Assembly (NCBI GenBank): GCA_947586835.1
Contig: CANPXT010000002.1
Span: 23,009-87,008, forward strand
DNA length: 64,000 nt
Direction: 5' to 3'
Source of the DNA: an uncultured Alphaproteobacteria bacterium
GTDB lineage: Bacteria; Pseudomonadota; Alphaproteobacteria; CAAHEQ01; UBA3637
Below are positions 1,732 to 60,217 of the stretch, one piece after another. The translations under genes were made by a program, and so were the position numbers. The notes beneath the pieces were generated by a model that searched no databases, had not been told where the DNA came from, and was given only the letters and a program-made list of their open reading frames with translations. Each line of letters opens with the position of its first letter. Position 1 is the first letter of the stretch.

Positions 1732-3057
1732 ATGATTAAAACAGACGTTTTATCTAACGGTATTCGGCTGGTAACGGAATCAATTCCGAATACACCGACC
1801 GTTTCCGTTTGTTATTCCGTTGAAATCGGATCTCAAAATGATCCGATTGCTTATTGCGGCTTAGCCCACTTATTGGAACATTCTTTGTTTTTAGGTACGC
1901 AATCTTATTCGCAAAAAGATATTCAACGACACGATTATTTAACGGGCGGTGCGCTCAATGCCGAAACAAACCAGGAGTGTACGATCATTTCTACCGATAT
2001 TTTATCGGAAGATTTGCCTTCCGCTCTGTCCATCATTGCCGATATGGTTCAAAATCCTTTGTTCCCGCCGCAAGCCGTTAATCGGGAAAAAGAAGTTATT
2101 TTAAATGAATTAAAAGACGTCAGTGAAGATGATGATATGTTTGTCGATAATATGATTTATGAAGTTGCCTTTAAAGGACAACCTATTCAATATCCGACAG
2201 AAGGATATGAAAATACCATCAAAGCCATCACGTCGAAAATAATAAAAGATCATTATCAAAAATATGCCCAACCCGATAAAATCATCATCAGCATCAGCGG
2301 AAATATCGAACATAATAAAATCAAAGAACTGTGCCAAAAACTTTTCGGGCAAATTCAACAAAAAGAAACCTTTAAGCCTTTGCACAAACCTATTTATGTC
2401 GGCGGGGATAAACGCATGGCAGAAAATATGTCAAGCAATGTTTTTCGATTGGCCTTTAACGGCATTGCCTTAGACGAAGGCACGGATAATTATGTTAAAA
2501 TTGATTTGCTTGCCTCACTTTTGGAAAATGCGCTTTATGATGATTTACGTCATAAAAAAGGATTGCTTTACGGTATTCATGCCGACAATATCGCTTACAA
2601 ACAGTGTGCTTTGTTTATGATTTCGGCTTCGTGTTTACCGAAAAACACAAAAGATGTGATTCACGGTTGTACGCAAATTATGGGGCAAATTGAAAAATAT
2701 ATAACACCGCAAAGCTTAAAGGCTGCTCAAAAAACAATTAAATTAGATTTATGCACGCGCGATAATTCACCGCACGAAAAAGCTTTTTCCAACGAGTTTG
2801 ATTTACGCTATTATAACAGAATTGTACCGACAACGGAATATTTTGAAAAAATTGATGCGACAACAGTCACCGATCTTCAAAAAATTGCGACTCGTATTTT
2901 TTCATCACGCCTTTCTTTTGCCGGTATCGGAAAACTCAAAGAAATGCCCTCTTATAAGCAAATAACTCAATGGATTGAAGAAGCACACCTTTCAACACCG
3001 AAAAACCTTGAAAAATCGTACATTAAAAATTATTTATCCAAAGGAAAAGAACCATGA
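1732..3057 (+). CDS. M16 family zinc peptidase (pitrilysin/MPP-like)
   Basis: HxxEH zinc motif (LAHLLEHSLF) near N-terminus. About 440 aa. 4-nt overlap with a second M16 gene. Confidence 0.8.
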   Translation: MIKTDVLSNGIRLVTESIPNTPTVSVCYSVEIGSQNDPIAYCGLAHLLEHSLFLGTQSYSQKDIQRHDYLTGGALNAETNQECTIISTDILSEDLPSALSIIADMVQNPLFPPQAVNREKEVILNELKDVSEDDDMFVDNMIYEVAFKGQPIQYPTEGYENTIKAITSKIIKDHYQKYAQPDKIIISISGNIEHNKIKELCQKLFGQIQQKETFKPLHKPIYVGGDKRMAENMSSNVFRLAFNGIALDEGTDNYVKIDLLASLLENALYDDLRHKKGLLYGIHADNIAYKQCALFMISASCLPKNTKDVIHGCTQIMGQIEKYITPQSLKAAQKTIKLDLCTRDNSPHEKAFSNEFDLRYYNRIVPTTEYFEKIDATTVTDLQKIATRIFSSRLSFAGIGKLKEMPSYKQITQWIEEAHLSTPKNLEKSYIKNYLSKGKEP

Positions 3058-4307
3058 TAAACACAAGCACATTATCTAACGGCATTCGCGTTATTACCGA
3101 TTCCGTCGAAACTGCGGAAAGCGTTTCATTAGGCGTGTGGGTCAGTGTCGGCGCCCGCTATGAAACCAAAGAAAATAACGGTATTTCTCATATGTTGGAA
3201 CATATGGCTTTTAAAGGTACCACAACGCGTTCGGCATTTGAAATATCAAAAGAAATTGAAGATGTCGGCGGTTACATCAATGCTTACACCGCTAAAAATA
3301 TGACGGCTTACTACGTGCGCGTTTTAAAGGAAAATTTAGATCTCGGATTAAACATTATTGCCGATATTGTTCAAAATTCTACCATGGATCCGGAAGAACT
3401 TAAAAAAGAAAAGGGAGTTATTATTCAAGAAATTAATATGCAAAATGATACTCCGGACGATTTAATTTTCGATTATTACGCCGCATGTGCTTATCCGGAT
3501 CAACCGATCGGTCGCACTATTTTGGGAACAGCGGAAAGTGTTCTTAAAATTGAAAGTCAAGACTTATTAAATTATATTCACTCTCAATACACGACAAACA
3601 GGTTGATTGTCAGTGCCTCGGGCAAGGTCGATCACAAAAGTTTTGTTGACGCCTGTGAAAAATTATTTACGAATGTACCCTCTCATCAAACCGAAAACGC
3701 CCTGCCCGCTATATATCACGGCGGTGATAAACGTGTGAACAAACCACATGAACAAGTCAACTTGGTTTTAGGGTTTGAAGGTTTTTCATATCATCATCCC
3801 GATTACTATGCCGGCAGTATTTTAGCCTCCATTATCGGTGGCGGTATGTCGTCCCGTTTGTTTCAAGAAATTCGAGAAAAACGTGGCTTGGTTTATTCCA
3901 TTTATGCCTTTAACTCACCGCAAACAGATACGGGCACTTTCGGTATTTATGCCGGCACGGGTGAAAAAGAAGTTGTTGAATTAATGCCTGTGTTGTGCGA
4001 TGAGCTGATGCGGGTATCCGGTTCATTAACTGATGAAGAAATTTCCCGTGCAAAAGCGCAACTCAAAGCCTCTGTTTTAATGCAGGAAGAAAATATTTCG
4101 TCCCATGCACGCACCAATGCCGTCGATTTGATTATTTACGGACGCCTGATACCGAAAGAAGAAGTAATTTCCAAAATCGAGGCTGTCGAAAAGCATCAAT
4201 TAGAAAAAATCGCCCGGCAATTATTCAAACAAAAGCCGACTTTTGCGGCATTAGGTCCGATTCAAAACATTATGAGCTATGAAGAAATTACAAAACGCTT
4301 GCAGTAA
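3054..4307 (+). CDS. M16 family zinc peptidase (MPP beta-like)
   Basis: GISHMLEHMAFKGT (HxxEH), YETKENNG and SRLFQEIREKRGLVYS motifs typical of the M16 active subunit. Confidence 0.85.
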   Translation: MINTSTLSNGIRVITDSVETAESVSLGVWVSVGARYETKENNGISHMLEHMAFKGTTTRSAFEISKEIEDVGGYINAYTAKNMTAYYVRVLKENLDLGLNIIADIVQNSTMDPEELKKEKGVIIQEINMQNDTPDDLIFDYYAACAYPDQPIGRTILGTAESVLKIESQDLLNYIHSQYTTNRLIVSASGKVDHKSFVDACEKLFTNVPSHQTENALPAIYHGGDKRVNKPHEQVNLVLGFEGFSYHHPDYYAGSILASIIGGGMSSRLFQEIREKRGLVYSIYAFNSPQTDTGTFGIYAGTGEKEVVELMPVLCDELMRVSGSLTDEEISRAKAQLKASVLMQEENISSHARTNAVDLIIYGRLIPKEEVISKIEAVEKHQLEKIARQLFKQKPTFAALGPIQNIMSYEEITKRLQ

Positions 4308-6000: not shown

Positions 6001-7218
6001 ATGAAACAAAAAGAAACAGTTTTAATTTCCGATATTGGCGGCACCAATGTTCGTTTCGGAATTTATCAGGAAGGACAAACAGAAATCGTAAATTTTGACG
6101 GTAAATATAAATGCAATGAATTTCAATCTTTTGAAGAAGCTGTTTTATTTTATTTAAAAGAAAAACACACAAAGCCGACTTTATGCGTCATCGGGGCGGC
6201 CGGAAACATTGATGAATATGCGGGCGAAGTTTTATCGACAAACACGCCTTGGAAAGCGAATATTTCAAAATTAAAAGCAAAATGTCCGTTTTTTAAACAT
6301 ATTCGCTTGGTCAATGACTTTGCTTTGCAAGGTTGGGCACTTTCGGAAATGAATTCGTCACAGTTTCGTCAAATGTTTCATACCCCTGCTCCGATTGATT
6401 TAACAAATGAAAAAATCGTTGTCATCGGTCCCGGTACCGGATTAGGCACTTGTCTGATTATGCAAAATGAAAAAAAAGAACAAGCGATTTACACATCGGA
6501 AGCCGGACACAGCACCATTCCTTATGTTGATTTTAACAATGCAACCGATAACGCCGATCGTGATCGGTTACTGCAAATATTAAAAGAATATTATACCAAA
6601 AAAAATCAAAAACCCGTGACGGAACATTTGGTATCCGGTACGGGAATTACCAATATTTATCACGCCTTTAAAGACGGTTTCATTCCGCTTCAAAAAGAAC
6701 AGTGTCTTTCGGCTGAGCAAATTGAAGAGTTGGCCAAAGCAAATGATAAAATCGCTTTAAAAACATTTTATTTTTTCAATGCTTATTTAGGCGCTCACAG
6801 CGGCACGTTGGCAGCAGCAACCAAAACAGATACTATTTTCTTTTGCGGCGGATTAATGGCAAGTCCGTGGGTTTTAAACCAGTTAGAAAAATCATCGGTA
6901 TTTATGCAACAATTTACGGCGCGTGCCGGTATGAGCGAAGCAATGGAACAAGTGCACTTTGTTGCCTCTCTTTATCGAGATATGTCCACATTGGGTGCCG
7001 TTGTCAGAGCTAAAAAATTAATTGCAAAAACCAAAAACGAGCAAGAAAAGAATCGAGCCAACAAAAACATTTTATATGCATTGGCCATATTAGAGCTTTT
7101 CGCTCATGAACATTGTCCCGAAGCTTTAAAAAATGTACGAAAAGTGAAAGCGGCCATTCAGCGGCAACAAAAAATCTATATTCAATCCGCACAAACTAAC
7201 CAACACATCCGTTCATAA
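6001..7218 (+). CDS. glk: glucokinase with about 80-aa C-terminal extension
   Basis: N-terminal ISDIGGTNVRFGIY ATP-binding motif and GPGTGLG, then a Lys/Gln-rich tail. Confidence 0.8.
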   Translation: MKQKETVLISDIGGTNVRFGIYQEGQTEIVNFDGKYKCNEFQSFEEAVLFYLKEKHTKPTLCVIGAAGNIDEYAGEVLSTNTPWKANISKLKAKCPFFKHIRLVNDFALQGWALSEMNSSQFRQMFHTPAPIDLTNEKIVVIGPGTGLGTCLIMQNEKKEQAIYTSEAGHSTIPYVDFNNATDNADRDRLLQILKEYYTKKNQKPVTEHLVSGTGITNIYHAFKDGFIPLQKEQCLSAEQIEELAKANDKIALKTFYFFNAYLGAHSGTLAAATKTDTIFFCGGLMASPWVLNQLEKSSVFMQQFTARAGMSEAMEQVHFVASLYRDMSTLGAVVRAKKLIAKTKNEQEKNRANKNILYALAILELFAHEHCPEALKNVRKVKAAIQRQQKIYIQSAQTNQHIRS

Positions 7219-8256: not shown

Positions 8257-8724
8257 TCAATTACTTTCAAACACAATATTATTTCCCGAGTCGGAGCAAG
8301 AGGTTGTTTTTGAATACATCGTTGTCAACGTATCCGGTGCCTGCTCAATTAAGCGGTAACATGCTGTTCTCGGCACATCCGTTAAAGTAATCGTAAACCC
8401 GACCCAATCCCCGTTATTCACCGCTGCTACATTTAATTCACCACCCCATCGATTAGGAATTTTGTAGCCGGTTGAACAATCATGAACAACATCTTCCTCA
8501 CACATTAATTGGTTATCCAAACCCTCATAGTCGGGTGCCCATGAAAATATATCATTAATATCACGCGCCATTTGCTCAATTTCCATCAATGTGGCACTGA
8601 CACGAAAATAAGAATCAACATAAGCCATTGACGTAATGGCACCAACGGATATCACACCGATAATGGCGATAACGCCAAGCATTTCAACCATTGAACGACC
8701 TGATTCATTTGATCTTTGCATCAT
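8257..8724 (-). CDS. type IV pilin / pseudopilin-like protein (prepilin-type N-terminus)
   Basis: SG|RSMVEMLGVIAIIGVISVGA has Gly at -1, Glu at +5 and a hydrophobic helix. C-terminal Cys pair. GGAGG RBS before ATG at 8724 (the ORF track starts at 8739). Confidence 0.65.
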   Translation of the reverse strand: MMQRSNESGRSMVEMLGVIAIIGVISVGAITSMAYVDSYFRVSATLMEIEQMARDINDIFSWAPDYEGLDNQLMCEEDVVHDCSTGYKIPNRWGGELNVAAVNNGDWVGFTITLTDVPRTACYRLIEQAPDTLTTMYSKTTSCSDSGNNIVFESN

Positions 8725-8747
8725 ATTTTCCTCCAACAAGCATTAAG

Positions 8748-22134: not shown

Positions 22135-22590
22135 TTATCTGCTATTATCCCTGCTATTATCCCTGTCCGCCACCAGAATGTCGTTGTTGTTCACAGACCG
22201 AGTATCCTCATCAGGAAGACTTATACCCACCTTTCCAAGTGTCTGTTTCAATTTCGCTTTGTAACCCGAAAGTTCTTCAAAGCGTTTATGTGCTGCCCTA
22301 ACATCATTTTCATATCCGTTACGCTTTGCATGTTCTTCTAAATCTTTCCAATTAACATCTTTCATTCGCTCCACAAACGAAGAAGAATGCTGATTGATAA
22401 TCTCTTTTCCATCAGCACTGTTCAGCGGAATGACAAGACTACCATTGTGCGGAACATTACCTTCAATCCTAGCCGGGTTACCGCTATGATCATAAGTAAT
22501 TGTGTATGTTGTTTTTTCATCTGTCTTAATTTGTTCTTTTTGAACACCGCCAAATACATTAAACTCTCTAAACTCTCTTTCATCAGTCAT
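22135..22590 (-). CDS. hypothetical protein (no signal peptide), gene next to repeat copy A
   Basis: 151-aa ORF with AAGGAG RBS and a clean terminator downstream. No motif recognised. Confidence 0.6.
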   Translation of the reverse strand: MTDEREFREFNVFGGVQKEQIKTDEKTTYTITYDHSGNPARIEGNVPHNGSLVIPLNSADGKEIINQHSSSFVERMKDVNWKDLEEHAKRNGYENDVRAAHKRFEELSGYKAKLKQTLGKVGISLPDEDTRSVNNNDILVADRDNSRDNSR

Positions 22591-22662
22591 TTAAAGACTC
22601 CTTTCGTTTACATGACTTTATTTTTATCACACAACAGTTTATATGACTTTTTCAGTATAAAT

Positions 22663-22818
22663 TAAACGTACGTTTTTTGCAACACTTTTTTCACTTTTCA
22701 TCAAAAAAATTTATTTCTATGGTTTTTTATTCATTTTCAATCGGTTATTTTTTTATTATTTTCAAAATGTTTGACCTTTTGAGCGTGCAAAAAAGTGCAC
22801 CAACTAGACCTACGTTTA
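22663..22818 (+). repeat. copy A of 157-bp IR-bounded AT-rich element (candidate invertible promoter or MITE)
   Basis: TAAACGTACGTTTTTTGCAACAC...GCGTGCAAAAAAGTGCACCAACTAGACCTACGTTTA. Homology to copies B and C ends exactly at the termini. The left end is 72 nt from the start of 22135..22590. Confidence 0.9.
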
Positions 22819-22994
22819 TTTTTGGCAACAACATGAAAATAAAAACAAATTAAAATAATTTTGAAAATTATGCTTAAATGTTGATTTTAAATAAAATATG
22901 TATAAAAAAACTGCTTGAAAGTCCCTATGACTTTCAAAAATTCAATTGCGAATCGCGTTAAAAAATTAAATCGAAAGCAACCGGAAAAATAACC

Positions 22995-23558
22995 TTACTT
23001 CCACGATGAAATCCAAGTTTGAATTTCTGCCAAAGGCGTTTGTAATTCATTACCGCCTGCGGAATCAAAGAGAATTTCTTTATCGGCAATAACCGTTGCA
23101 CCCGTTGAAGCCGTTTTCATATCTTTAATAACCGTTCCCGCCCAACCGGCATTCGTTGAAAACAAAACAACCTCTTTACCCTGCAAACTCGTGTGATTGA
23201 AAAACGTTAAAACCGCCGGCGCCATTTTATACCACCATGTAGGCGTTCCGATAACAATTCGTTCGTACGGTGCAACATTCGGTAATGCTTTTAGCGTTGG
23301 CTGATAACCGGCATTAACTTCTTTTTGCCCCAGTGCGGAAAGCTCCTCCATATCGTGCGGATATGTTTTTTCCGTTTCAAGCCGAAAAATATCGGCATTC
23401 GTTTCTTTTTGTATCATTTCGGCAATTTGTTTTGTATTTCCGCTGACGGAATAATAAACAACCAATGTTTTATTCATATTTTCCTCCTGTTTTGCAAAAC
23501 ACGGGAGCGCGAACAACAAAGCGCTCCACAAAAAAAGGGGAAACTTAATATGTTTCAT
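22995..23558 (-). CDS. flavodoxin-family protein with N-terminal signal peptide
   Basis: Signal-like MKHIKFPLFLWSALLFALPCFA, then VVYYSVSGNTKQIAE (flavodoxin FMN loop). GGAGGA RBS. Confidence 0.7.
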   Translation of the reverse strand: MKHIKFPLFLWSALLFALPCFAKQEENMNKTLVVYYSVSGNTKQIAEMIQKETNADIFRLETEKTYPHDMEELSALGQKEVNAGYQPTLKALPNVAPYERIVIGTPTWWYKMAPAVLTFFNHTSLQGKEVVLFSTNAGWAGTVIKDMKTASTGATVIADKEILFDSAGGNELQTPLAEIQTWISSWK

Positions 23559-54825: not shown

Positions 54826-57048
54826 ATGAGTATGGAGAACACCGAAAATATTCGCGAAACAAAACTGGCAGATGCGCTGTCGGAGCGTTACTTGGCTTAT
54901 GCCATGTCAACCATTGTGGCGCGCTCGCTTCCCGATGTGCGTGACGGCTTAAAACCTGTCCATCGCCGGTTGTTATATGCCATGCGTCAACTGAAATTGG
55001 ATCCGGTTTCGGGCTTTAAAAAATGTGCGCGCGTGGTCGGAGACGTCATCGGTAAATATCACCCGCACGGCGATACGTCCGTTTATGAAGCCATGGTGCG
55101 TTTGGCACAAGATTTTGCCGTGCGTTATCCGTTGGTGGATGGGCAAGGCAATTTCGGCAACATTGACGGTGATAAAGCCGCTGCCATGCGCTACACGGAA
55201 GCGCGCTTAACGGCAGTTGCCGTCGCACTGATGGACGGATTGGAAGATAATGCCGTTGACTTTGATAAAACATATGATGGCGAAGAAGAAGAACCTTCGG
55301 TTATGCCGGCCGCTTTTCCGAATTTATTGGCGAACGGTTCTTCGGGTATTGCCGTAGGCATGGCAACAAACATTCCGCCGCATAATGTCGGCGAAGTTTG
55401 CGATGCACTGTTGCATTTATTAAAAAATCCCGAAGCCTCTACGGCTGATTTAATTCAATACATTCAAGGACCTGATTTTCCAACCGGCGGTATTTTGGCG
55501 GAAAGTCGTCAAAATATCATTAAAGTTTATCAAGACGGGCGCGGAGCCATGAAAGTTCGCGCCAAATGGGAGAAAGAAGAGTTATCGCACGGGCAATATC
55601 AAATTGTCGTTACCGAAATTCCTTACGGCATTCAAAAATCTGATTTGGTTATGCGCATTGCAAAGTTGTTGTCCGAAAAAAAACTGCCTTTATTGGCTGA
55701 TATTCGTGATGAATCATCTGATGTTGTTCGTTTGGTGTTAGAACCGAAATCACGGACGGTTCTGCCCGAACAACTCATGGAACATTTATTTAAAAACACC
55801 GATTTGCAAATTAACTTCAATCTGAATATGAATGTGCTTGATGCCGATCATACCCCACGCGTCATGAGTTTAAAAGAAGTGTTGGTTGCTTATTTAAAAC
55901 ATCGCGATATTGTATTGGTACGTCGCTCGCAATATCGACTGGATAAAATTATGCACCGAATGGAGCTGTTGCAAGGCTTTTTAATCACTTATTTAAATCT
56001 GGATCGCGTGATTGAAATTATTCGGAACGAAGATGAACCCAAACCTCTGTTAATGAAAGAGTTTTCTTTAAGCGATATTCAGGCGGAAGCCATTTTGAAT
56101 ATGCGATTAAGAAGTTTGAGAAAACTGGAAGAAGCACAACTGAAAAACGAATATGAAACACTTTCAAATGAAAAGCAGGAATTAGAAAAGCTTTTAAATG
56201 ATACGGCGTTACGGATTAAAAAGCTGGCGGAAGAAATTAAAGTTATTCAAAAAGCATTCGGGCAAAAAACGGCACTCGGGGCACGGCGAACACAAGTGAC
56301 CGATGCGCCCGAAGAAGTGAAAATTTCCATTGAAGCCATGATTGAGCGTGAACCGATAACGGTTGTGTTATCAAAACAAGGCTGGATTCGTGCCGTGAAA
56401 GGGCACATTGAAATTTCTTCCGATTTAAAATTTAAAGAAGGTGATTCACTTAAAGCCGTGTTAAAAACATACACCACCGATAATATTTTAATTTTCACCA
56501 CAAACGGACGGTTTTACACGCTTTTAGGTAACAACATTGCGGGCGGTCGCGGGTTTGGTGAGCCGTTACGTCTGTCGGTCGATATTGCACAGGAAGCCGA
56601 TATTGTCGCACTTTTGCCATATGAAGCCGATCAAAAACTTTTGGTTGCCTCGCAAAACGGCAAAGGCTTTATTGTTGCCGCGTCCGATGTGATTGCGCAA
56701 ACACGCGCCGGTAAAATTATTCTTAATTTATCTGATAACGATAAAGCCATTCTTTGCAAACCCGTTACGGGTGATCATATTGCCGTTATCGGCACCAATC
56801 GCAAAATGATAGTGTTTAAAACGGAAGAAATTCCCGTTATGACACGTTCCAACGGCGTCATTCTTCAACGCTATCAGGAAGCCAAGCTTTCCGATGTTAA
56901 ATTCTTTAATTTGGTCGATGGTTTATCTTTCCCCTCGGGCAATGGCACACGCATTGAACGGAACATTGAATTTTGGCTGGCCAAACGGGCAACGGTGGGT
57001 AAAATTCCGCCGGTCGGATTTCCGCGCAGTAACAAATTCGGCAATTAA
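54826..57048 (+). CDS. parC: DNA topoisomerase IV subunit A
   Basis: [24 protein letters not shown], the active-site [10 protein letters not shown] tyrosine region and 740 aa. No GyrA-box seen. Confidence 0.9.
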
Positions 57049-57059
57049 AAATTGTTTAA
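57009..57059 (+). repeat. left arm of perfect 51-bp inverted repeat (last 13 codons, stop and 11 nt of parC)
   Basis: GCCGGTCGGATTTCCGCGCAGTAACAAATTCGGCAATTAAAAATTGTTTAA. The exact reverse complement is at 58733-58783 (checked base by base). Confidence 0.95.
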
Positions 57060-57189
57060 CGTAAAAAAGCCTGATAATGCTAAAATAAACATTTTTCAGC
57101 TTGATTCCGGTTGAAAAAGTGCGCAAGACTGTAATATGTGTTTTGAAGTGTGAAAATCTCTTTGTTTTTTTGGTGGAAGTTGCCCAAAA

Positions 57190-57346
57190 TAAACGTACGT
57201 TTTTTGCAACACTTTTTTTCATTTTTCATCAAAAAAATTTATTTTTCTTGTTTTTTATTCATTTTCAATCGGTTATTTTTTTCTTTTTTTCAAAATGTTT
57301 GTTTTTTCAAGCGTGCAAAAAAGTGCACCAACTAGACCTACGTTTA
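57190..57346 (+). repeat. copy B of 157-bp IR-bounded AT-rich element
   Basis: Same termini as copy A. The right end is 47 nt upstream of the pilin-EGF ATG (57394). Confidence 0.9.
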
Positions 57347-57393: not shown

Positions 57394-58626
57394 ATGCAAG
57401 AAAATAAACAATTAAAACAACAACAAAATCAGGCACAAGACGGGCGCAGCATGGTTGAAATGCTGGGTGTTTTGGCTATTATCGGTGTGATTTCACTGGG
57501 GGGAATCGCAGGCTATAAAATGGCAATGGATCGGTATCAGGCGAATCAAATTGCGAATGAAATCAACTTAATGCGCAATGATATGAAGATGAAAGTAGCG
57601 CAAGGGGCTGATTTACTTTTAGGTGAGCCGTATGATTATAATGAGGAAGAAGACAAACTCGGGCATTTAAATTTTAATGAAAAATATGAAGTTGATTTCG
57701 GGTTTAATCATGACACGGAAGATCCGGAAGAAGAGGAAGAGACGGAAGAAGGATATTTCATCAGTGTATCAGGCATCTCAGAAGGCGCCTGCAAGTCGCT
57801 TGTGACGCTTTTAGATAGTATGGATGATACGGAAGATATAAAAGTAAATAATGTTGATTATTATGATACGGATTGGAACATATGCGCCTCAGAAAACAAA
57901 ATAAAAGTGGCATTTTCAACTCAAGATTTGGGTGTTATGAATGATGAGGAAGATGATTATGAAGATGAAGCGGTGACAACGGTAGCGACGCTTACCACTA
58001 CGACAGCGACGCCCACAACACCAACACCCACAACGCCGACAGCAACAACACCGACAGCAACAACGATAACAACCCCTGCCGTTACAGGAATAAGCAATTA
58101 CTGCAATAATCATGGTTCGGTGTCTTGGGAAGGTCCTAATTTTTTATGTTATTGCTACGATGGTTATGGTGGCACTTATTGTGAAACAGCTAATAAATGC
58201 AACGGACATGGCACGTGGTTTAATAGAAGTGACGGCACAGGTTATTGCTCTTGCTCAGGTAGATATGGTGGCACTTATTGTAACGAATCCAATAAATGCA
58301 ACGGACATGGCACGTGGAAAAATAACAGTGACAGCACAGGTTACTGCTATTGCTCAGATGGCTATGGTGGCACTTATTGTAACGAATCCAATAAATGCAA
58401 CCATGGCTACTGGAAAAATAATAGTGATGGCACAGGTTACTGCTCTTGCTACGGTAGTTATGGCGGCACTTATTGTAACGAATCCAATAAATGCAATGGA
58501 CATGGCACGTGGTATAATCATACCGGTAAAGGTTATTGCTCTTGCGTAGGTGGCTATGGTGGCACTTATTGTGAAGAAACTCTGTTTACAACAACGATTG
58601 AACCACCCACTACTGAAAATCGTTGA
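57394..58626 (+). CDS. pilin-like protein fused to Thr/Pro-rich linker and five EGF-like Cys-rich modules
   Basis: ATG at 57394 after a GGGAGAAAGGA RBS. DG|RSMVEMLGVLAIIGVISLGG prepilin-type N-terminus (Glu +5). TTTTATPTTPTPTTPTATTPTATT linker. Five modules of CNGHG...C.C..GYGGTYC. Confidence 0.75.
   Translation: MQENKQLKQQQNQAQDGRSMVEMLGVLAIIGVISLGGIAGYKMAMDRYQANQIANEINLMRNDMKMKVAQGADLLLGEPYDYNEEEDKLGHLNFNEKYEVDFGFNHDTEDPEEEEETEEGYFISVSGISEGACKSLVTLLDSMDDTEDIKVNNVDYYDTDWNICASENKIKVAFSTQDLGVMNDEEDDYEDEAVTTVATLTTTTATPTTPTPTTPTATTPTATTITTPAVTGISNYCNNHGSVSWEGPNFLCYCYDGYGGTYCETANKCNGHGTWFNRSDGTGYCSCSGRYGGTYCNESNKCNGHGTWKNNSDSTGYCYCSDGYGGTYCNESNKCNHGYWKNNSDGTGYCSCYGSYGGTYCNESNKCNGHGTWYNHTGKGYCSCVGGYGGTYCEETLFTTTIEPPTTENR
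58102..58572 (+). repeat. coding tandem repeats (96-99 bp period) encoding EGF-like modules
   Basis: The 32-mer GGCACTTATTGTAACGAATCCAATAAATGCAA is exact at 58270, 58369 and 58465. Five protein modules. Confidence 0.9.
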
Positions 58627-58732
58627 TTTTAAAGCTGTTTGTTAACAATCGGGCGAGCGGAATTAATCCCCTCGCTCCGGTTCGTTGCTTTAAAAATATC
58701 TCTGAATACGGCTTAAAACAAGCTTTTTTGCT

Positions 58733-58783
58733 TTAAACAATTTTTAATTGCCGAATTTGTTACTGCGCGGAAATCCGACCGGC
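58733..58783 (-). repeat. right arm of perfect 51-bp inverted repeat
   Basis: TTAAACAATTTTTAATTGCCGAATTTGTTACTGCGCGGAAATCCGACCGGC is the reverse complement of 57009-57059. Confidence 0.95.
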
Positions 58784-58880
58784 AGGATATGAAGATTCCG
58801 TTCAATCCCAAAGGAAATAAAGCCGATAATAAAGATATGGAAAAATAATTTTCGGATATATCCGGTTTTAAAGAAAGATA
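58744..58880 (-). pseudogene. decayed inverted copy of the parC 3' end
   Basis: The minus-strand frame reads ...[26 protein letters not shown], compared with ParC ...[42 protein letters not shown]. The last 51 bp are identical and the upstream part is degenerate with a deletion. Confidence 0.5.
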
Positions 58881-58943: not shown

Positions 58944-59999
58944 TTAAGCGTTTTCGGCTTGAGAACGACTCACAGTCGATTGAGTCTTCTGCTCATTCAC
59001 CTGTTGCGCATTTTGTGATAACGTTGCATTTTGAGTTTCCGCTTCGTTGTGCGCTTCATTGTCTGAATGATCAGAAAGCTTTTGAGAAAGCCCTTTTGCT
59101 TTTATTTCCGCTAACTCTTTTTGAGCTTTTTCAAGTGAATTAATAACAGCTTTTCTATCATCAACGGTCAAATTTTCAGGATTAAAAATAGCAAATTCGG
59201 CTTTACTGGTTTTAATGCCGTTATGTTCTCCGTCATCTTTTCTTTCAAAAAACTTTTCCAACGACATACCGGGCAATTCCATATAAGAGGCATAAATTAA
59301 ACTTGCACCTCTCCATTTTGACCCTTCCGACTCCTTATCATTTTGTACAAGATCTTTCAGAGTGTTTAAAGCCTCTTCTGCTGCTTTGGGATCTTTTTTC
59401 AATTCTTCCCAGCTTTTAATGCCCGAAAAGGCGCCCGGAATAATGCGATCACCATCACGATATCCGTAAAGAAATTTATATGCATTCATTCGATCTTCGG
59501 AAGTTTCTTTTAAATTGGTGCGTCTTTTGCCGACGACAGAATCGGCAAAAGAAACTGTGGCAACCGCACCACCTACCCATCCGCCAAGGTAAGTTGTTGC
59601 AAGTCTTACGCCGCTCCGTGCACTATAACCGCCCAAAGCTTTTGATACCTTTGCGGCAACACCCGGTATTTTCTTAGCTGCGATATTCCCGGCAACACCA
59701 CCGGAAACCATGCCGCCCAAACCACCTAAAAGCGCGTCATCTAACCCGTCCAAAACATCTGATCCGGTCGGAATCATGTTCTTGGCAACCGTTGAATAAG
59801 GAACAGCTTGCTGATCTTTCGGAATAACAACGTTTTCTCTTTTGGTGTATAAATGACTCGTACCTAAATCAAGTGGTGGCATCGGCTTGGTATAATCAAT
59901 ATTTTCAAATTGTTCATCGGTTATGTTCGTTACTCTTTTCAGTAACAATTCAACCGCCCGTTCTCCGGCATTTGTTTGATCTTTCAATCCATCTAACAT
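58944..59999 (-). CDS. hypothetical protein with glycine-zipper-like hydrophobic segment
   Basis: 351-aa ORF, AAGGAG RBS. LLGGLGGMVSGGVAGNIAA and YLGGWVGGAVATV segments. Charged coiled-coil C-terminus. No signal peptide. Confidence 0.65.
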   Translation of the reverse strand: MLDGLKDQTNAGERAVELLLKRVTNITDEQFENIDYTKPMPPLDLGTSHLYTKRENVVIPKDQQAVPYSTVAKNMIPTGSDVLDGLDDALLGGLGGMVSGGVAGNIAAKKIPGVAAKVSKALGGYSARSGVRLATTYLGGWVGGAVATVSFADSVVGKRRTNLKETSEDRMNAYKFLYGYRDGDRIIPGAFSGIKSWEELKKDPKAAEEALNTLKDLVQNDKESEGSKWRGASLIYASYMELPGMSLEKFFERKDDGEHNGIKTSKAEFAIFNPENLTVDDRKAVINSLEKAQKELAEIKAKGLSQKLSDHSDNEAHNEAETQNATLSQNAQQVNEQKTQSTVSRSQAENA

Positions 60000-60060: not shown

Positions 60061-60217
60061 TAAACGTAGGTCTAGTTGGTGCACTTTTTTGCACGCTTAA
60101 AAGGATAAACATTTTGAAAACAATAAAAAAATAACCGATTGAAAATGAACAAAAAACAAGAAAAATAAATTTTTTTGATGAAAAGTGAAAAAAAGTGTTG
60201 CAAAAAACGTACGTTTA
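60061..60217 (-). repeat. copy C of 157-bp IR-bounded AT-rich element (reverse orientation)
   Basis: Reverse complement of copies A and B. The same end as in copy B faces the gene, 61 nt upstream of the ATG at 59999. Confidence 0.9.

Follow-up and report, generated by a model that had tools for sequence, protein, structure and literature searches.

A probable family of Mpi-type invertible promoter segments in an uncultured gut alphaproteobacterium, with one copy reversed relative to its gene

INTRODUCTION

The best-known cases of promoter inversion under the control of a master invertase come from the gut Bacteroidales, in which it diversifies the cell surface. Mpi of Bacteroides fragilis flips 13 regions, and seven of these are polysaccharide promoters (PMC4747536), and invertons have been widely catalogued across phyla, including the Proteobacteria (PMC11602134). 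The Mpi regulon of B. fragilis is the closest known system to the element family that is described here, which was found in 64,000 nucleotides of DNA from an uncultured gut alphaproteobacterium (the whole stretch that was analysed, hereafter the window). Like the fin regions of the Bacteroidales, this family appears to combine one small Mpi-family serine invertase with many dispersed short segments that have the core AAACG-TW-CGTTT, carry promoter elements against one repeat and precede genes for surface structures. The segments are also of a similar size class (~160 bp here and ~180–210 bp in the Bacteroidales). The two systems differ in their hosts, in their targets, which here are mainly type IV pilin-like genes instead of capsule operons, in the outer arms of the sites, in the dozens of copies per genome that are found here, and in a symmetric TA centre that is accompanied here by a deletion allele. 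The layout of the promoter differs as well: in our family the predicted -10 hexamer lies outside the segment and the -35 hexamer inside, whereas in the Bacteroidales regions the whole TAnnTTTG motif is located inside.

Other described systems resemble the family in part. Hin/hix, Gin/gix, and Cin/cix also employ a small serine recombinase with a C-terminal HTH and inverted palindromic sites with a central 2-bp crossover. However, each of them forms one switch per element, with the invertase inside or beside a segment of ~1–3 kb, whereas many segments of ~157 bp are present here, and their central dinucleotide is asymmetric (AA in hix), in contrast to the symmetric TA of our sites. In Mycoplasma penetrans, each surface-protein gene of the mpl family reportedly has its own invertible promoter of ~135 bp with short inverted repeats. 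This arrangement is similar in that individual invertible promoters are distributed across a large family of surface-protein genes, but it occurs in another phylum and involves other repeats and another family of recombinases. Correia elements and other promoter-bearing MITEs are likewise short, multi-copy, and intergenic, with inverted ends and possible junction promoters. They occupy variable sites with a TA duplication in near-random orientation, whereas the elements described here have recombinase-type ends, a fixed position, and a biased orientation.

RESULTS

Three copies of the element in the window

Both end sequences of the element occur exactly three times each in the 64-kb window, with no occurrence in 100 shuffles. 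They delimit copy A (156 nt; 22663..22818, plus strand), which was identified by a search for the end motifs and by alignment, copy B (157 nt; 57190..57346, plus strand), and copy C (157 nt; 60061..60217, minus strand). Pairwise identity between the copies is 92–95%, and when the flanks are included in the alignment, it begins and ends sharply at TAAACG...CGTTTA, beyond which the sequences are unrelated. The first-pass annotation of this DNA had claimed that copies B and C present the same end to the downstream start codon and that copy A is reversed relative to its own gene. Both claims are confirmed by the coordinates, the alignment, and the distances to the start codons. In copy B, whose beta2 end (GTGCACCAAC and TAGACCTACGTTTA) is directed towards the gene and whose gamma arm is ATTTATACAAT, 47 nt separate the GTGCACCAACTAGACCTACGTTTA end from the ATG of gene B at 57394. 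In copy C, the beta2 end is also directed towards the gene, the gamma arm is TGCTACACT, and the GTGCACCAACTAGACCTACGTTTA end is located 61 nt from the start of gene C at 59999. In copy A, the interior is reversed relative to B and C, and the distance between the opposite end (22663) and the ATG of gene A (22135..22590, minus strand) is 72 nt. The gene-side flank of copy A, ATTTATAC, is the same as that of copy B, although opposite ends of the element adjoin it; we estimate the chance of such sharing at the base composition of the window as ~5e-5. The end of copy A that corresponds to the gene-facing end of B and C is directed, as had been annotated, towards 176 nt of non-coding DNA (22819..22994), in which there is no credible ORF, and towards the 3′ end of a convergent flavodoxin-like gene (22995..23558, minus strand; match to the Pfam family Flavodoxin_4). 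In addition, this spacer contains a terminator-like hairpin of the convergent gene (22914–22938, minus strand). None of the Rfam covariance models matched anywhere in the window at gathering thresholds, so the identity of the element as a known small RNA is unsupported.

Gene A, which is adjoined by copy A, encodes a 151-aa protein with no Pfam family. Its sequence has 45% identity with each of the repeats in a 303-aa protein from the MAG bin93 (E = 3e-25), and the bin93 gene has an element in the standard orientation upstream and the same gene-side flank as gene A, ATTTATACT. Gene A is therefore not an outsider to the family. Gene B (57394..58626, plus strand) encodes a type IV pilin-like N-terminus (GRSMVEMLGVLAIIGV) that is followed by EGF-like Cys-rich repeats, and an exact look-up of its product returned no identical protein on record. 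Within this gene, five tandem repeats of 96–99 nt (58108–58578) encode Cys-rich EGF-like modules, for which the matches to the Pfam families EGF_laminin and EGF_TEN are weak. Gene C (58944..59999, minus strand), which is adjoined by copy C, encodes a 351-aa protein with no Pfam family that appears, as judged by eye, to be related to a 366-aa protein encoded downstream of an element in the related MAG contig L001. For proteins A and C, a word-indexed homologue search returned just a single near-identical relative apiece. The window contains another type IV pilin-like gene (8257–8739, minus strand; PilS and N_methyl matches), which has no upstream element and has 44 nt of N-terminal coding sequence in common with gene B. 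Elsewhere in the window, a 15-nt periodic repeat (1144–1313) encodes a Pro/Ala/Gln-rich stretch of a 565-aa ORF (25–1722) with no Pfam family.

Copy B and its pilin-like gene are bracketed by a 70-nt inverted repeat (57004–57073 and 58719–58788; 93% identity), which consists of the 3′ end of a parC-like gene with its downstream sequence, duplicated in reverse beyond gene B. The DNA that it brackets may represent another unit, of larger size, that is invertible or has been rearranged. A similar arrangement is present in L001, in which inverted copies of ~110 nt (3040–3150 and 6623–6740), comprising the upstream arm and the left end of an element, enclose a 3.5-kb segment with three genes, one of them pilin-like.

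Structure of the end sites

Each end of the element is a 14-bp near-palindrome of the TAAACG-TA-CGTTTA type, in which the outer half is perfect and the inner half is imperfect. In copy A, the gene-proximal site is TAAACGT.ACGTTTT (22663..22676), with a perfect outer half and the proposed crossover at the central TA, and the distal site is TAGACCT.ACGTTTA (22805..22818), with a degenerate inner half and a perfect outer half. The left ends read TAAACGTACGTTTT and the right ends read TAGACCTACGTTTA. In the latter, the inner half TAGACCT deviates from the core at two positions, one of which adjoins the crossover, and this degenerate half-site could slow or block recombination. The right-hand site is, however, identical in copies A, B, and C and in two copies of another species (L001 and L004), which suggests that selection keeps it. 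Inside the left site lies the alpha arm, TTGCAAC-AC-TTTTTT, and inside the right site lies the beta2 arm, GTGCACCAAC. The 7-nt direct repeat TACGTTT at both ends of copy A (22669–22675 and 22811–22817) is the same in every copy and belongs to the palindromic site. A sigma54-type reading of the right-end sequence GGTGCAC-TTTT-TTGCA was rejected, as its GG-to-GC spacing is 11 instead of 10 and it points into the element.

It had been proposed that inversion takes place exactly between the terminal repeats. The junctions of copy A fit this proposal, but the terminal inverted repeat itself is just 11 nt long with one mismatch (TAAACGTACGT / ACCTACGTTTA), and the ends are better described as the 14-bp near-palindromic sites. 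In sequence, the junctions of copy A equal the exact product that a central-TA crossover in a copy of the B/C type would give, in which the outer half-sites are kept and the inner ones are swapped. The two junctions of copy A read x / TAAACGT.AGGTCTA / GTTGGTGCAC ... GTGTTGCAA / AAAACGT.ACGTTTA / ATTTATACT. After flipping back, copy A would carry the junction CAGTATAAAT / TAAACGTAGGTCTAGTTGG, the alternative A junction being CAGTATAAATTAAACGTAGGTCTAGTTGG, and a flipped copy B would carry GTGTTGCAAAAAACGTACGTTTA / ATTTATACAATTTAGG.

Predicted promoter elements at the gene-side site

A promoter scan, in which calls are consensus matches only, identified TTGCAA-17-TATACT in copy A, directed towards gene A and matching the consensus at 9 of 12 positions. 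The predicted -35 hexamer TTGCAA (22677..22682, minus strand) is located inside the segment, in the alpha arm, whose conservation across 96 copies is at least 90%, and the predicted -10 hexamer TATACT (22654..22659, minus strand) is located outside, in the gamma arm, with 3 nt between it and the site. The -35 hexamer is immediately preceded by AAAAAAGTG (22683..22691, minus strand), which resembles the proximal UP-element subsite (consensus AAAAAARNR) and may function as one. The same scan found no gene-directed promoter-like site in copies B and C, in which the gene-side arm presents GTGCAC at 21 nt. Since copy A has a sigma70-like hybrid promoter and B and C have none, copy A is predicted to be ON and B and C are predicted to be OFF or low. 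Transcription of gene A would accordingly begin ~7 nt downstream of TATACT (near 22647, minus strand).

The same layout is apparent across the element family. Outside the gene-side site, 85 of 94 copies have a TATNNN hexamer at a distance of 3–4 nt, which in 74 of them stands exactly at +4..+9. The hexamers are TATGCT (38), TATACA (26), TATACT (6 in register and 11 shifted by one), TATAAT (2), TATGAT (1), and TACACT (1). On the inner side, TTGCAT adjoins the site in 75 of the 94 copies, with a 17-nt spacer that is filled by the 14-bp site. The presence of TATNNN outside and TTGCAT inside the site places the proposed crossover site within the spacer of a predicted sigma70-like promoter. The segment thus does not contain a complete promoter: a -35-like hexamer is inside, and the predicted -10-like hexamer is outside. 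In most MAG copies, a -35-like hexamer (TTGCAA or TTGCAT) is present in each of the two inner arms, so inversion would not obviously turn the promoter off; as far as the arms indicate, it would alter the promoter context (an A-tract versus a GC-rich arm), with the -35 retained. A clear asymmetry of the -35 between the two arms is seen in the window-type copies and in L001, L004, and L067.

The element family in related genomes

Of 185,579 species genomes, only one contains the exact 24-nt right end, and it is a rabbit-gut alphaproteobacterial MAG. Outside the window, the left-end motif has 85 matches in 78 stretches, every one of which belongs to a rabbit-gut metagenome bin. The hosts are four alphaproteobacterial MAGs, with dozens of element copies per genome, and a few contigs in Akkermansia and Gastranaerophilales bins; the motif is absent from the other species representatives. 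The JGI metagenomes yielded no left-end match, and the plasmid and phage collections contained no sequence similar to the element. The contigs from 'Gastranaerophilales' and 'Akkermansia' MAGs of the same rabbit study (L021, L027, L030, L044, and L076) carry typical elements and pilin-like genes and are probably mis-binned.

In the upstream part of a typical MAG copy, a beta arm such as TTGCACCAAT is followed by the site, TTTGCAACAC-TTTTTTT, and a variable interior. The gene-side part consists of GAATTCGCGTTGCAT, the site, the gamma arm ATTTATACAAT or ATTTATGCTAT, a ribosome-binding site of the GGGAGG type, and the ATG. Comparison of 96 copies shows conservation of at least 90% for the ends but not for the interiors; the latter fall, as judged by eye, into at least four sequence classes. 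The total length is nonetheless 158–159 nt in 86 of the 96 copies (L010–L085), and this constancy despite unrelated interiors suggests a constraint on the distance or the helical phase between the sites. For at least 72 of 98 elements, the gene that follows is pilin-like and has the GRSMVEMLGVLAIIG N-terminus; this gene class is a typical target of phase variation. Together, the three copies in the window and the 85 left-end matches in MAGs represent many dispersed copies upstream of surface-structure genes.

The CACTTTTTTT end is distal to the gene in 82 of 102 site pairs. In four or five, the outer arms are the same (beta upstream, gamma with the -10 on the gene side), but the interior that they enclose is reversed. 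The reversed-interior copies are L034 7559–7717, L068 1433–1590 and 5621–5778 (a duplicated region), L083 7910 (cut off), and copy A of the window. For example, L078 (standard) and L068 5621 (flipped) have the beta arm TTGCACAAAT and the gamma arm TTGTATA.. in common and opposite interiors between them. L084 and L001 were considered as two states of one locus, but their downstream genes differ, and they are paralogues. In several regions (L084 300–615, L073 4500–4545, L031 6430–6475, L064, L066, and L075), alpha-type arms are present on both sides, or three sites occur consecutively. These arrays indicate adjacent or nested elements, which could undergo multiple, shufflon-like rearrangements.

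The three loci in other assemblies

Independent assemblies carry the element in the same orientation as the window at locus A (L002 and L003, with three further gene-A contigs outside this comparison), at locus B (L006), and at locus C (L006–L009 and L204). As the orientations are the same in all of the assemblies examined, switching was not observed; these are consensus assemblies, which report only the majority state. Across paralogous loci, both orientations are found with identical outer arms on either side.

A different allele of locus A is found in a sister strain (L005; Logan SRR29273042), in which a single perfect palindrome, TAAACGTACGTTTA, occupies positions 1602–1615 without the element. 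This allele reads ...CCAAAAA TAAACGTACGTTTA ATTTATACTG..., and its flanks are 96–98% identical to the window. In the SRR29273042 strain, locus C still contains the element, oriented as usual (L204). No other solo perfect site was found in ~600 kb. The L005 allele fits excision between the two sites and fits equally well a target site before insertion, so the orientation of copy A could stem from insertion or excision rather than from inversion in place; an insertion free of orientation might itself be brought about by this kind of recombination. Joining after excision would be chemically possible because the central TA is symmetric.

Mpi-family recombinases and Mpi-type sites

A tblastn search with Hin, XerD, and FimB detected no serine or tyrosine recombinase in the 64-kb window. 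In related MAGs, tblastn of the fetched loci identified two serine recombinases beside elements. One of them (L028 4218–4811) lies ~300 nt from an element that precedes a pilin-like gene, and the other (L074 977–1606) lies ~760 nt from an element. They score 283 and 289 bits, respectively, against the NCBIfam model NF009949 ('master DNA invertase Mpi family serine-type recombinase'), for which the curated equivalog cut-off is 272 bits. Both have Resolvase and HTH domains and are ~60% identical to thousands of proteins, one of which is an NCBI-named Mpi-family protein from an alphaproteobacterial MAG. The invertase of the window species was not found among the relatives of the MAG enzymes (P0010, P0012, and P0128), which are from other organisms without the element sites. 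P0010 is 71% identical to the L074 enzyme, and the palindrome TAAACGGTCGTTTA (L086 1438–1451) is located 58 nt upstream of its start.

The repeat consensus of the B. fragilis invertible promoters is reportedly ARACGTWCGT. We scanned 185,579 species genomes for AAACGTWCGT-N160-190-ACGWACGTTT, which returned 109 stretches; among the 80 matches listed, 67 are from Bacteroidota. The scanned Bacteroidota sites are ~30-bp palindromes centred on AAACG-TW-CGTTT, and in 30 of the 30 Bacteroides/Parabacteroides regions examined, the TAnnTTTG promoter motif is located inside the segment, directly against one repeat. Since the scanned sites combine the core with TAnnTTTG, the alphaproteobacterial sites have the same core as genuine Bacteroidales invertible promoters: the segments of our family are bounded by inverted repeats with AAACG-TW-CGTTT. 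Palindromes with this core, arranged as inverted pairs ~180 bp apart, are also present in gut Treponema, Saccharibacteria, and Coprobacillus assemblies (L092, L097, L149, and L161).

DISCUSSION

We consider it likely, with a probability of roughly 0.7, that the element is an Mpi-type invertible promoter segment and that copy A shows its other state, which is predicted to be ON. An Mpi-family serine invertase, encoded elsewhere in the genome, would bind the two 14-bp near-palindromic end sites and, through strand exchange at the central TA, invert the ~128 bp that lie between them. The site on the side of the gene would be located in the spacer of a sigma70-type promoter, of which the -10 hexamer (TATACT, TATACA, or TACACT) would stay outside the segment, 3 nt beyond the site, and the -35 hexamer would travel inside it. 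One arm would place AAAAAAGTG-TTGCAA 17 bp from the -10, which would be the present state of copy A, ON for gene 22135–22590, and the other arm would place GTGCAC at 21 bp, which would be the present state of copies B and C, OFF or low for their genes. We infer that such an enzyme catalyses the reaction in this organism, where the crossover falls, which hexamers form the promoter, and which orientation is ON. Neighbouring surface-protein genes are probably switched on and off by a site-specific enzyme in this way. Comparison with other genomes strongly supports the inverton reading of the first-pass annotation, through the core in common with the Bacteroidales, the Mpi-family genes beside the copies of relatives, and the interiors that are reversed between constant arms. 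The uniform orientation at each locus in the assemblies examined, the lack of a recombinase in the 64 kb, and the element-free locus A in the sister strain point the other way.

Several other explanations were considered for the same observations. The family may have been built by Mpi-type recombination, with the copies here no longer switching, in which case copy A would be a fixed historical inversion, or would have been installed in its orientation, and would act as the constitutive promoter of gene A. The same orientations in all of the assemblies examined, including a strain with 2–4% divergence at locus C, would be expected of such a frozen state, as would the degenerate inner half-site TAGACCT and the absence of a recombinase from the window. 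However, the three window copies and those in L001 and L004 all have the same variant site TAGACCTACGTTTA, which suggests selection; consensus assemblies give only the majority state, and the invertase is kept in related genomes. On balance, we regard a frozen inversion as unlikely. Alternatively, the 14-bp palindromes could bind a dimeric transcription factor at the promoter spacer and ~145 bp upstream, with looping between them, and the repeated unit would be a regulatory region common to a gene family. The position of a palindrome between the -35 and the -10, the constant site-to-site distance (the 158–159 nt total length noted above), and the single orientation of most copies are compatible with such operators, but they would leave unexplained the reversed interiors between constant arms, the L005 allele, from which the interior is cleanly missing, the core that is identical to that of the Bacteroidales, and the adjacent Mpi-family invertase genes, and we consider this explanation extremely improbable.

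A further explanation is a mobile cassette, a non-autonomous unit of ~142 nt that would insert in either direction into TAAACGTACGTTTA, so that copy A would never have inverted in place. Such a unit would give a circular 142-nt junction, …CCAACTAGACCT.ACGTTTTTTGCAAC…. In line with this, the empty site is exactly one perfect palindrome (the only such case found), the 7-nt direct repeat TACGTTT is present at both ends, the element is multi-copy, and the symmetric central TA would allow joining in either orientation. This explanation is nevertheless very unlikely. No transposase was seen, and the 'duplication' does not vary between copies as a target-site duplication would, but is the same at every copy and forms part of a recombinase-type site. 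Position and orientation depend on the genes, with 82 copies in one orientation and four or five in the other and with a fixed position relative to the -10 and the start codon. Furthermore, standard and flipped copies agree in their outer beta and gamma arms, solo perfect sites are absent from ~600 kb except in L005, there is no match in the plasmid and phage collections, and small serine invertases normally act within one molecule. The identical 'duplication', the fixed position and orientation, the conserved outer arms, and the lack of plasmid and phage matches make a classical MITE unlikely, and a Tc1/IS630-type MITE with a TA duplication is ruled out by ends that are full recombinase-type palindromes. 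In an Mpi-type invertible segment with a symmetric central TA, the same enzyme could also excise the interior and leave the single palindrome of the sister strain. We regard as rather improbable the further idea that this enzyme excises the ~142-bp interior and perhaps re-inserts it, which would make the interior a portable 'half-promoter' cassette that is shuffled among >30 docking sites. As the crossover site is inside the promoter spacer, recombination would then exchange only the -35/UP half, and the docking sites would be those before pilin-like and other surface or secreted protein genes of a small gut alphaproteobacterium.

Inversion of promoters by an Mpi-type enzyme is a known kind of switch, and the split-promoter arrangement is possibly a new architectural variant of it. 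The location of the -10 outside and the -35 inside the segment leads to a clear prediction of the ON orientation and, if confirmed, would offer an economical variant design for the construction of synthetic switches. The same core and the same recombinase family as in the Bacteroidales are found here in uncultured gut Alphaproteobacteria, before a large family of pilin-like EGF-repeat genes. These findings point to a spread of the Mpi system across phyla in gut communities, and with the palindromes of the Treponema, Saccharibacteria, and Coprobacillus assemblies in view, it may have reached several of them. For the uncultured Alphaproteobacteria themselves, it offers a concrete route by which they could vary their adhesins.
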